A DNA stretch of 64,000 nt. Origin: a bacterium (GTDB lineage: Bacteria > UBA8248). The notes beneath the pieces are model-generated. The model was given only the letters and a program-made list of their open reading frames with translations, ran no database searches and had not been told where the DNA came from. The translations under genes and the position numbers were made by a program. Below, piece by piece: positions 14,622-16,670 of the stretch (the stretch's first letter is position 1; every line of letters begins with the position of its first letter). The stretch spans positions 768,001 to 832,000 of the forward strand of contig CBDBEV010000001.1 of assembly GCA_965204535.1 (NCBI GenBank). Direction: 5' to 3'.

Positions 14622-16670
14622 ATGAGGCTGACGGAAGAAATCATACTCCTGTTGCTGAACGAAGAGAGCGGCTATCTCGAACAGGTGGCGGGCTGGAATC
14701 TCTCGTGCGTTCTCGCCGGCGCCGTGCTGGCGGATTTGGACCTCGAGTCCCGTATCGACACCGCTCAAGAGATGCTTTCGTTGGACGATCCATCACCTAT
14801 GGGAGACGATCTCCTCGACCCCGTTCTGGCGACCATTGCCGCCGATCCGGAGCCACGCACCGTCAGTTACTGGGTCGAGAAAATCGCCGGTACGTCGGAT
14901 GATATCCTGTATCATTCTCTCGAACGGTTGTCGAAAAACGGGGTCCTGTACTATACGAACGGCGGTTTCTGGTCTCTCTCGCGAGACGCGGCGAAAGCGG
15001 ACAACGGCATGTCCAACGGCGAGTCCCAGTCGATAGTCCGCCGGCGAATCGTCGAGACGATCCTGGGGGACGACATACCCTATCCCCGTGACGCCATCAT
15101 CATCGGACTTGCCGATGCCTGCGACGCATTCAGGTTTCTTCTGCAACCGCGCGACTACGAGGCTTCACGCGAGCGTATCGAACTGCTGGGCATGCTGGAC
15201 CGCATCAGTCGATCCGTCGCCGCCGCGGTCGTGGCGACGTCGGTCAGTCGCTCCATCGCGATAGCGACGAAACCCATTCCCAACGTGAGCCTGTTGAAAA
15301 TGCTCCGCAAAGATTCACTTTGGCAAGGGAATACGTCCAGACTGCTGGCCGACCTTTACCGCGACTACGGCCCGGTCTTCGCGATCAAGGCCCCCTTTTC
15401 CAGGAAGAGAGTTTTCGTCATCGCCGGGAACGATGCGAACATCTGGGTCAACCGGAATGGTCGGATGCACCTGCGATCGAAGGAAACCATGGAGGGGATG
15501 GAGACCGTGCTCGGCGCGGCGAGAAGCCTGCCGGGCATGGACGGAGCCGAACACTTCCGTATGCGCAAGGCGTTCCAGATGGCCTCCTCCCGGAGCCGCC
15601 TGAACGACCGTCTCGGAGATCTGTTCGAAGAGATACGGCTTGCGCTTGATTCGTGGAACGTGGGCGACGTGCTCGTCGCCAAGGACGCAAGCCGCACCCT
15701 CATGTCCGGCCAGGTATCCCGGCTCCTGTTCAGCATGGACTTTTCAGAATACGTGGACGACATCCATAAATATAAAAACCGCATGTTGATCACCTACGCG
15801 CAGAAGATTTTGCCGAAGTTTTTCATGCGAACGCCGCGAATGAAAGCCATCCGGCGGCGAATCGACCACGTCTATTCCATGATCCGGAACTCGCACACCC
15901 CGGCGCAGCGTGAAAACCAGCCCCGCGACCTGATCGACGACCTGCTCAGCCTGCACGCCAGCGACCCGCAGTACTTTCCGGATACCGATACCAGGTTCAT
16001 GATGATCATACCGTTCGTCGCGGCCATGTATATGGGCACCGCCGTCGCGTTCGGGCTCTATTTGATGGTCTCCCATCCGGACGTCTTTCAGCGCGTGCGC
16101 AGGGAAGCCGAGGCGCTGTTCGCCGAAGGAGACCCCGACCCGGAGGACATCACGCCTGAGGCCATCGACACCGCCCACCGGCTGATTCTCGAAACCCTTC
16201 GGATCTACCCCAGCGTGCCGTTGCAGTTGAGAACCGTCATGAACAGTTGCATTGTGGAGGGTTATGAACTACCCCTCGATGCTCGCGTCGTGCTGGCGTC
16301 CACCGCCGTCCATTACATGGAGGAGAACTATCCGGATCCGCAGAAGTTCGACATCGACCGGTATCTTCCCGGGCGCGAGGAGCACAAGAAACACGGGGCT
16401 TACGGGGCGTTCGGTTTCGGTACGCACACCTGCCTCGGCCCGAGAGTGGCGGAATATCAAATGACGCTCAACCTTTTGATGATCGCCTACTACTTCGAGC
16501 TTGAAGTGCTGCCATCGAGCTACCCGGTCAAAATCAATCCGTTTCCGACCTGCACCCCTCGCAAGAGCCTCAAGCTCCGAATCAAGTCGAAGCGCCCGAT
16601 CTTCTCATCCGATCGGGCGATGGATGACCGGGCGGAAAGTGACCACCGGGCGGTCACCCTCACTTCCTGA
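14622..16670 (+). CDS. Cytochrome P450 with N-terminal GPP34/GOLPH3-like domain
   Basis: N-terminal LTEEIILLLLNEESG..LAGAVLADL.L..RI..GDDLLD.VL..I resembles GPP34; C-terminal ETLR (ExxR), FDIDRY and the heme motif FGFGTHTCLG. Confidence 0.85.
   Translation: MRLTEEIILLLLNEESGYLEQVAGWNLSCVLAGAVLADLDLESRIDTAQEMLSLDDPSPMGDDLLDPVLATIAADPEPRTVSYWVEKIAGTSDDILYHSLERLSKNGVLYYTNGGFWSLSRDAAKADNGMSNGESQSIVRRRIVETILGDDIPYPRDAIIIGLADACDAFRFLLQPRDYEASRERIELLGMLDRISRSVAAAVVATSVSRSIAIATKPIPNVSLLKMLRKDSLWQGNTSRLLADLYRDYGPVFAIKAPFSRKRVFVIAGNDANIWVNRNGRMHLRSKETMEGMETVLGAARSLPGMDGAEHFRMRKAFQMASSRSRLNDRLGDLFEEIRLALDSWNVGDVLVAKDASRTLMSGQVSRLLFSMDFSEYVDDIHKYKNRMLITYAQKILPKFFMRTPRMKAIRRRIDHVYSMIRNSHTPAQRENQPRDLIDDLLSLHASDPQYFPDTDTRFMMIIPFVAAMYMGTAVAFGLYLMVSHPDVFQRVRREAEALFAEGDPDPEDITPEAIDTAHRLILETLRIYPSVPLQLRTVMNSCIVEGYELPLDARVVLASTAVHYMEENYPDPQKFDIDRYLPGREEHKKHGAYGAFGFGTHTCLGPRVAEYQMTLNLLMIAYYFELEVLPSSYPVKINPFPTCTPRKSLKLRIKSKRPIFSSDRAMDDRAESDHRAVTLTS

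Follow-up and report, generated by a model that had tools for sequence, protein, structure and literature searches.

A gene on the forward strand of the 64,000-nucleotide stretch of DNA analysed here (the window), at positions 14622..16670, encodes a GPP34/GOLPH3-fold domain fused to a cytochrome P450 whose I-helix is one residue short, lacks the acid-alcohol pair and carries a conserved tyrosine. We favour, with moderate confidence, the view that this fusion is an oxidase of the cytoplasm that receives its electrons from ferredoxin, tailors imported sterols and is docked to a membrane or a partner by its GPP34 domain, its substrate and reaction being predictions. Its branch of the P450 tree has lost the usual oxygen-activating residues and sits among sterol-type enzymes; the fusion is therefore likely to work inside the bacterium, modifying host sterols by unusual chemistry, and not as a secreted effector at host membranes.

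The open reading frame runs for 682 aa with no internal stop, and the first-pass annotation was right to read a GPP34-like region and a complete P450 in a single frame. A Pfam scan places GPP34 (PF05719) at residues 3-204 (14628..15233, + strand; E 3.6e-27, 96 bits against a cut-off of 29) and p450 (PF00067) at residues 218-644 (E 6e-42, above the cut-off); the P450 domain as a whole covers approximately residues 218-660 (15273..16601, + strand). Both Pfam domains are found in 118 of 120 homologues among the matches listed. The domain junction is bridged by contigs of three other sequencing runs, with no indels listed, and the contig of one further run, possibly the source assembly's own, covers the whole gene. 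Because homologues share both domains and contigs of other runs cross the junction, an assembly artefact or a chance read-through can be discarded. Both domains are under purifying selection: across six pairwise comparisons, dN/dS lies between 0.09 and 0.42 in the P450 and between 0.28 and 0.42 in GPP34. The closest named homologues of the fusion carry the label Nitrospinae, and near-identical DNA turns up in two studies, in runs with the label sponge metagenome; the runs listed as carrying fusion DNA include no RNA datasets. Five loci of genus relatives have longer GPP34 open reading frames that are not fusions: each is a short GPP34 gene whose frame runs spuriously upstream across a PHO4 transporter gene. 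A search of the ESM Atlas returned generic P450 and FAD-oxidoreductase clusters only.

Motif and fold both support membership of the second domain in the cytochrome P450 superfamily, and haem binding is predicted. An AlphaFold model of the full protein (pLDDT 83.5, pTM 0.76) matches P450s in a structure search, led by the oleate-bound structure of CYP184A1 (Z 35.8, rmsd 3.2, 438 aligned), with which CYP51, CYP46A1, CYP3A and BM3 are tied. The ETLR and FGFGTHTCLG motifs already recognized in the first pass are located at residues 524 and 597. The former contains the ExxR residues E524/R527, invariant like the meander residues F576/R580; the latter is a form of FxxGxHxCxG in which C604, H602, G598 and G606 occur in 84/84 rows, with Cys604 (codon 16431..16433, + strand) at the position of the haem thiolate ligand. 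H311/R315 and R537 are conserved as well. Of the proximal basic residues, R313/R315/K316/R520/R608 are kept and some are gained. The Cys loop aligns gap-free to CYP51 and CYP102-like chains, with no insertion. CYP74 and CYP152 bear an insertion in this loop; the canonical loop length, together with a score of 19.9 bits against a cut-off of 600 for the CYP152 model, eliminates membership of the CYP74/CYP152 type. Among solved structures, bacterial CYP51 matches the family profile best (E 8.7e-34); the fusion is not a CYP51, as the structural identity is 17-20% where at least 40% is the criterion, and the AGxHT I-helix motif is absent.

In P450s, the acid-alcohol pair of the I-helix is described as delivering protons (PMC9366932). 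The loss of the (A/G)Gx(D/E)T pair had been claimed from the start, and the change proves more radical than that claim: one residue has been deleted and a tyrosine is conserved. The segment from P453 to P486 (15978..16079, + strand), with a core, PFVAAMYMGTAV, that begins at residue 464, has 34 residues versus 35 in the sister P450s, a length shared by 121/121 close rows and 82/84 more diverse rows. A [DE][TS] pair within residues 464-478 appears in 0/121 close rows; the D-T at 473-474 in 8/84 diverse rows is three residues downstream of the expected Thr site and not in the canonical register, which disposes of a normal pair in shifted register. Where a canonical monooxygenase has (A/G)Gx(D/E)T in a 35-residue segment, the fusion has 34 residues and Tyr470 (codon 16029..16031, + strand), which is found in 84/84 diverse rows and 120/121 close rows and aligns with the conserved Thr of 31/32 sister fusions. 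In the sister alignment, A-G-L-D-T-A becomes A-S-(V/I)-gap-Y-(L/M), with Tyr470 on the Thr; comparison with CYP184A1 yields the same register. With CYP51, the gap shifts downstream, placing the Tyr on the acid position and Met/Leu on the Thr. Because the position of the gap depends on the comparison, the deletion is certain and its exact site is not; most simply, the residue lost would be the acid. We infer from the alignments that Tyr470 lies over the haem.

Relatives of the fusion were collected by searching 50%-cluster representatives with a profile; of the 150 listed, 120 reached 400 aa or more, and 7 partial ones were left out of the tree. Related P450s among the listed representatives have a segment of 35, rarely 36, residues with AG(L/M/I)DT or close variants, and 36 GPP34 fusions are among these listed AG(L/M/I)DT-type relatives. 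When the I-helix columns are left out of the alignment, the 11 representatives with a short helix, which have Tyr (8), Asn (2) or Arg (1) at the Tyr470 position, form one clade (FastTree support 1.0), recovered by a quick IQ-TREE run (LG+G4, 62 rows) with SH-aLRT 100 and a stem of 0.45. The deletion form thus has a single origin, and other GPP34-P450 fusions keep AGxDT; where among these fusions the short-helix clade belongs is not settled by the trees. E294 in the B' helix and R387 in the F helix are further residues specific to the clade, as are F459 and R608. In the order of genome G040, no further AGxDT fusion was found (1/57).

The fusion gene is part of an island of ten genes, with functions that are homology labels only. 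On its upstream side are a divergent sterol-methyltransferase-like (SMT) gene (6754..7968, - strand, likely start 7785; Sterol_MT_C E 2.1e-16), a Rieske oxygenase with a KshA_C domain (7877..8983, - strand, likely start 8914; Pfam and structure-library match), an outer-membrane beta-barrel protein (9047..9976, - strand; OMP_b-brl E 5e-11), an MMPL/RND transporter with a sterol-sensing domain (10493..12937, + strand; domain matches), and a TPR protein with an N-terminal hydrophobic leader (13404..14144, + strand; domain match). Downstream are a protein of the fatty-acid hydroxylase/sterol desaturase family (16697..17698, + strand, likely start ~16934), a probable outer-membrane protein (18013..19272, - strand; DUF1302 match with E 0.0031, below the cut-off), a LolA-like periplasmic carrier (19269..20087, - strand; E 4.7e-61), and an FAD oxidoreductase of amine-oxidase fold (20325..21794, - strand, likely start ~21680), for which LkcE is the best solved relative. 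The first-pass annotation had overlooked that the SMT-like gene, the Rieske oxygenase, the MMPL transporter and the FAD oxidoreductase lie around the fusion gene. The best solved relatives of the Rieske oxygenase are 3-ketosteroid 9-alpha-hydroxylases. The SMT has a divergent region I, DLCSGFMVWGWGESLHF, without the canonical Glu motif, and also matches cyclopropane-synthase models. In the window's genome (95.7% complete), the queries used found no sterol cyclase, CYP51, ERG24 or SdmA/B, and hence no ERG24-CYP51-cyclase set of the kind that marks a de novo sterol cluster. Of 62 genomes, ~53 of which carry the fusion, 13 gave a sterol-cyclase match at 67% identity or more, and the window's genome was negative.

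The first-pass annotation had pointed to the absence of a nearby ferredoxin gene, and a motif scan of the 64-kb window detected none apart from the Rieske oxygenase itself; a single credible 2Fe-2S ferredoxin was seen among the family loci scanned. The neighbouring Rieske oxygenase is likewise without a clustered reductase, and by motif scan the window's genome encodes, at other places, two small 2Fe-2S proteins, at C2:1891075 and C2:2354214, and three small 4Fe-4S proteins. For these reasons the missing ferredoxin says little about chemistry and, with the proximal basic residues kept as well, does not speak for peroxide or isomerase chemistry. A rival reading keeps the same island and a sterol-type substrate, and makes the fusion a peroxide-driven enzyme or a hydroperoxide/endoperoxide isomerase that acts on the Rieske product or on oxidised host sterols. 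In its favour, the acid-alcohol pair is wholly lost, and such a pair is reported absent from peroxygenases, P450cin and P450eryF (PMC9366932). The single credible ferredoxin among the scanned loci and the long stem of the clade also agree with it. However, we judge it unlikely, given the basic residues kept or gained on the proximal face, a Cys loop of canonical length that lacks the CYP74 and CYP152 insertion, and the equally partnerless Rieske oxygenase in a genome with ferredoxins elsewhere.

Gene context across the family supports a sterol or lipid substrate for this putative oxidase. We surveyed 91 loci of the family P450, namely the window, 10 genus relatives (one a duplicate) and the best 80 of 485 GTDB matches, with ~8 kb flanks where contigs allowed, and counted neighbours by HMM over all open reading frames. 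In this set, with its best 80 of 485 GTDB matches, some sterol-type enzyme is found at 83/91 loci and none at 8/91; among the GTDB species loci alone (best 80 of 485), the count is 73/80. Judged by their record titles, the loci cover many phyla. Neighbours among the 91 (best 80 of 485 GTDB matches included) are a KshA-like Rieske oxygenase at 64, an SMT-like gene at 58, MMPL at 47, an FAD oxidoreductase at 40, AcrB at 27, the DUF1302-like probable outer-membrane protein at 10, a squalene epoxidase-cyclase fusion in the flank at 7, ERG4/24 at 6, a separate CYP51-like gene at 4, and the fatty-acid hydroxylase/sterol desaturase family protein at 2. By contrast, at 28 loci of AGxDT fusions the same profiles and thresholds gave sterol-type enzymes at 0/28 and none of the other neighbours counted except an AcrB-type pump, at 3/28; this contrast is strong and is not a test on independent cases, because two lineages supply most of the 28 controls and deletion-clade loci were the source of the profiles. 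An MdoC-like acyltransferase adjoins 10/28 of the AGxDT fusion loci and is absent from the compared loci L013-L112. Of the original proposal that a membrane-targeting module delivers the P450 to a lipid or sterol, these counts support the substrate; the PI4P-type delivery, taken up below, is not supported.

The substrate of the island could also be a lipid other than a sterol, either acyl chains or a different isoprenoid, that is methylated, desaturated and oxygenated. Several observations lean this way: the SMT matches cyclopropane-synthase models and diverges from tested SMT motifs, the top fold match of the P450 is oleate-bound, and the FAD oxidoreductase weakly matches PDB 2b9w, which we take to be a fatty-acid isomerase. 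The precedent would be the furan fatty acid route UfaM/UfaD/UfaO, in which UfaD is, by description, a flavoprotein of the same NAD/FAD-binding type (PMC7380195). Set against this are the co-occurrence of Sterol_MT_C, KshA_C and sterol-sensing domains and the squalene epoxidase-cyclase, CYP51 and ERG24 genes that adjoin the P450 in some loci, and we therefore regard a non-sterol substrate as quite unlikely. Still less probable is a P450 domain that binds haem and serves as a non-catalytic sterol carrier or sensor, with Tyr470 blocking the distal site. Such a role would fit the bulky residue that the alignment puts at the site of O2 activation and the transporter that is often adjacent; it fits poorly with purifying selection on all haem and redox-face residues and with the Asn at the Tyr470 position in basal members of the clade, as Asn at that I-helix position occurs in active P450s.

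The N-terminal domain is a genuine GPP34 fold. In a search of 48,161 chains with its model, Z exceeded 5 for Vps74 and GOLPH3 only (Z 18.5-18.6, rmsd 2.3-2.4, ~190 aligned; Vps74: 18.6, 2.3, 191), and the next match had a Z of 4.3. The PI4P pocket of GOLPH3 consists of W81, R90, R171 and R174 (Wood et al. 2009, PMC2806290). A profile alignment to full-length GOLPH3 puts A32 at R90, D93 at R171 and L96 at R174; Lys or Arg occupies these positions in 0/80, 0/80 and 1/80 rows, and an alternative register likewise offers no Arg. W81 aligns with V22 in one register and with the invariant W25 in another. The net charge of the domain is -17, where the family has a median of -19 and spans -10 to -26; that of the P450 domain is +9. 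With a pocket that lacks Arg at three positions and a domain this acidic, PI4P targeting of the GOLPH3 type, as first proposed, is not supported. The R174 equivalent is retained in 21/32 AGxDT fusions and in most of the short GPP34s compared, placing the deletion clade further from the eukaryotic pocket. Arg91 (51/80 rows) is close to the old PI4P pocket, and the domain may bind an anion there. The hydrophobic beta3/beta4 hairpin is kept (model strands 109-112 and 116-119; F116 in 77/80 rows, W117 in 74/80). Inspection and hydropathy revealed no signal or transmembrane segment in the fusion protein. Other fusion partners of GPP34 are a Rieske ferredoxin and a membrane domain that is His-rich and cytochrome-b-like; GPP34-Rieske fusions are reported in PMC11706023 as well.

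The effector model of PMC11706023, in which a secreted protein binds host PI4P and blocks phagosome maturation, draws on the genuine GOLPH3 fold, an invariant Trp25 near the W81 position and a family reported there as confined to sponge symbionts, with expression in sponge metatranscriptomes, and is the least probable of the alternatives given no Arg at R90, R171 and R174 (0, 0 and 1 of 80), a net charge of -10 to -26, no leader peptide by inspection and hydropathy, a gene embedded in a metabolic island, and a main text that contains no residue-level test.

The cytosolic tails bound by GOLPH3 are basic. [quoted passage not shown] If the fusion is an oxidase of imported sterols, its acidic GPP34 domain may hold it at the inner membrane by means of its hydrophobic hairpin or by attaching to basic segments in a membrane partner, rather than through PI4P. 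Sterol would pass in or out via the MMPL, LolA-like and outer-membrane set, and electrons for the P450 would come from housekeeping ferredoxins. O2 would be activated via a replacement proton route, for which Tyr470, the clade-specific E294, R387 and/or a substrate hydroxyl are candidates. Because the normal proton relay is gone, desaturation or C-C cleavage would be as likely as plain hydroxylation.

A more speculative proposal, which we hold to be possible and rather doubtful, makes the deletion/Tyr clade a P450 class with a new mechanism. One GPP34-P450 lineage would have lost an I-helix residue, been recruited to sterol islands and turned to reactions other than hydroxylation (C-C cleavage in a ring or side chain, desaturation or cyclopropanation) that lie behind some unusual 'sponge' sterols; GPP34 would be an ancient adaptor of bacteria that docks membrane enzymes and redox partners, to which eukaryotes later added PI4P binding. 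Should the favoured reading be correct, a gene family among the most widespread in sponge symbionts would encode a lipid-tailoring enzyme and not an anti-phagocytosis effector, which would change the published model. Sponge sterol modifications that lack an explanation would also gain a candidate enzyme, with a bearing on whether sponges or their bacteria make fossil-marker sterols. The AGxDT and deletion/Tyr forms would then be a natural pair of sister enzymes for studying O2 activation without the acid-alcohol pair.

The fusion itself has already been published. Ferreira et al. 2025 (PMC11706023) describe GPP34_L, GPP34 plus P450, as 656 proteins found in sponge symbionts only, and propose a secreted PI4P-binding effector. 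The window's gene has the same two-domain architecture and sponge habitat and belongs to GPP34_L. There GPP34_L is one group; here it falls into two, an AGxDT form and a deletion/Tyr clade with ties to sterol-type genes, with the PI4P pocket absent. The main text of that paper mentions no helix, threonine, sterol or steroid, and its xlsx supplement no sterol or helix; a flanking-gene figure in its PDF supplement may bear on this. Our literature searches turned up no account of an I-helix clade of the deletion/Tyr type, of its association with sterol islands or of the missing PI4P pocket. Bacterial SMTs and de novo sterol clusters have been reported in sponge symbionts (Brown et al. 2023, PMC10070321; Kelly et al. 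2022, PMC9531527); the main text of Brown et al. mentions no GPP34, cytochrome or desaturase. These clusters share an SMT-like gene with the family loci, a minority of which also have ERG24, CYP51, cyclase and SdmA/B-like genes, whereas the window island is without cyclase, CYP51 and ERG24 and its SMT is divergent.

With GOLPH3/Vps74 (PMC2806290), the N-terminal domain shares the fold and the hydrophobic beta-hairpin; it differs in having Ala/Asp/Leu for R90/R171/R174, in its acidity, in its fusion to an enzyme, and in lacking the ~60-residue N-terminal extension. With Methylococcus capsulatus CYP51 (PDB 6mi0/7jj1/6mcw), the second domain has the P450 fold class in common, but it is ~20% identical and without AGxHT, and CYP51-like genes stand as separate neighbours in the 4 family loci noted above. 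The known P450s without an acid-alcohol pair, which likewise include CYP74, CYP7A1 and CYP8A1, have, as far as is known, lost it by substitution. A literature search of small yield, and so weak, found no I-helix case with a Tyr or a deletion. As in the peroxygenases, P450cin and P450eryF as they are described, the Asp/Glu-Thr relay is lost from the fusion and the Cys ligand is retained; in contrast to their substitutions, the helix of the fusion is one residue shorter and has a Tyr in place.

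The sister fusions that keep the acid-alcohol pair (AGxDT-type) are repeatedly found beside a further enzyme gene: an MdoC-like membrane acyltransferase flanks these GPP34-P450 genes in 10 of 28 loci (L145, L147, L149, L153, L158-L161, L165 and L169), and this suggests that AGxDT-type fusions belong to a second, different pathway. Within the clade marked by Tyr470 and no acid-alcohol pair, one sub-lineage (L029, L030 and L152) is encoded immediately after a gene for a squalene epoxidase-cyclase fusion. Its I-helix segment has 35 residues, a length reached through a separate insertion, and the D-T is still absent.

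Comparison of the window's SMT-like ORF (6754-7968) with 66 further SMT-like ORFs shows that the P450 is accompanied by two types, one with the motif DL(V/I)TDxxE(Y/F)GW and a commoner one with DLCxxxMx(W/F)GWGESLHF, which is without the region-I Glu. Several families of short palindromic repeats occupy the island's intergenic gaps (window 6693-22921), for example at 13110-13281, 14198-14373, 10310-10345 and 22890-22925; island gene order varies between close relatives. At the right edge is a gene for an ankyrin-repeat protein with an N-terminal leader (21811-22791, minus strand).

GPP34 is also encoded by short stand-alone genes. In the genome of the window, one such gene (G000:C1:719324-719977, minus strand, in locus L113) has a STAS-domain gene directly upstream, and a similar short gene is matched in most genomes of the genus. 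In genus relatives (L013-L017), and also in L155 and L156, the short GPP34 gene either adjoins or overlaps the end of a gene for a phosphate transporter of the PHO4 type.

Other domain arrangements occur among GPP34 proteins and related P450s. One related P450 (P0173) has two GPP34 domains, and two others (P0244 and P0264) bear C-terminal cyclic-nucleotide-binding domains. In L019 (8901-10076, plus strand) and L018 (6389-7564, minus strand), the fusion partner of GPP34 is a membrane domain that contains two pairs of His residues and resembles a di-haem cytochrome b, although its Pfam matches are weak; 3′ of these fusions lie a gene for a multihaem cytochrome c and one of Tll0287-like type. This architecture is absent from those named in the examined sections of PMC11706023, on GPP34 proteins of sponge symbionts. 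In L020 (9063-10007, plus strand), from a genome of the same genus as the window's that also contains GPP34-P450 fusions, a small Rieske-type ferredoxin domain is fused to GPP34, and that paper mentions this architecture.
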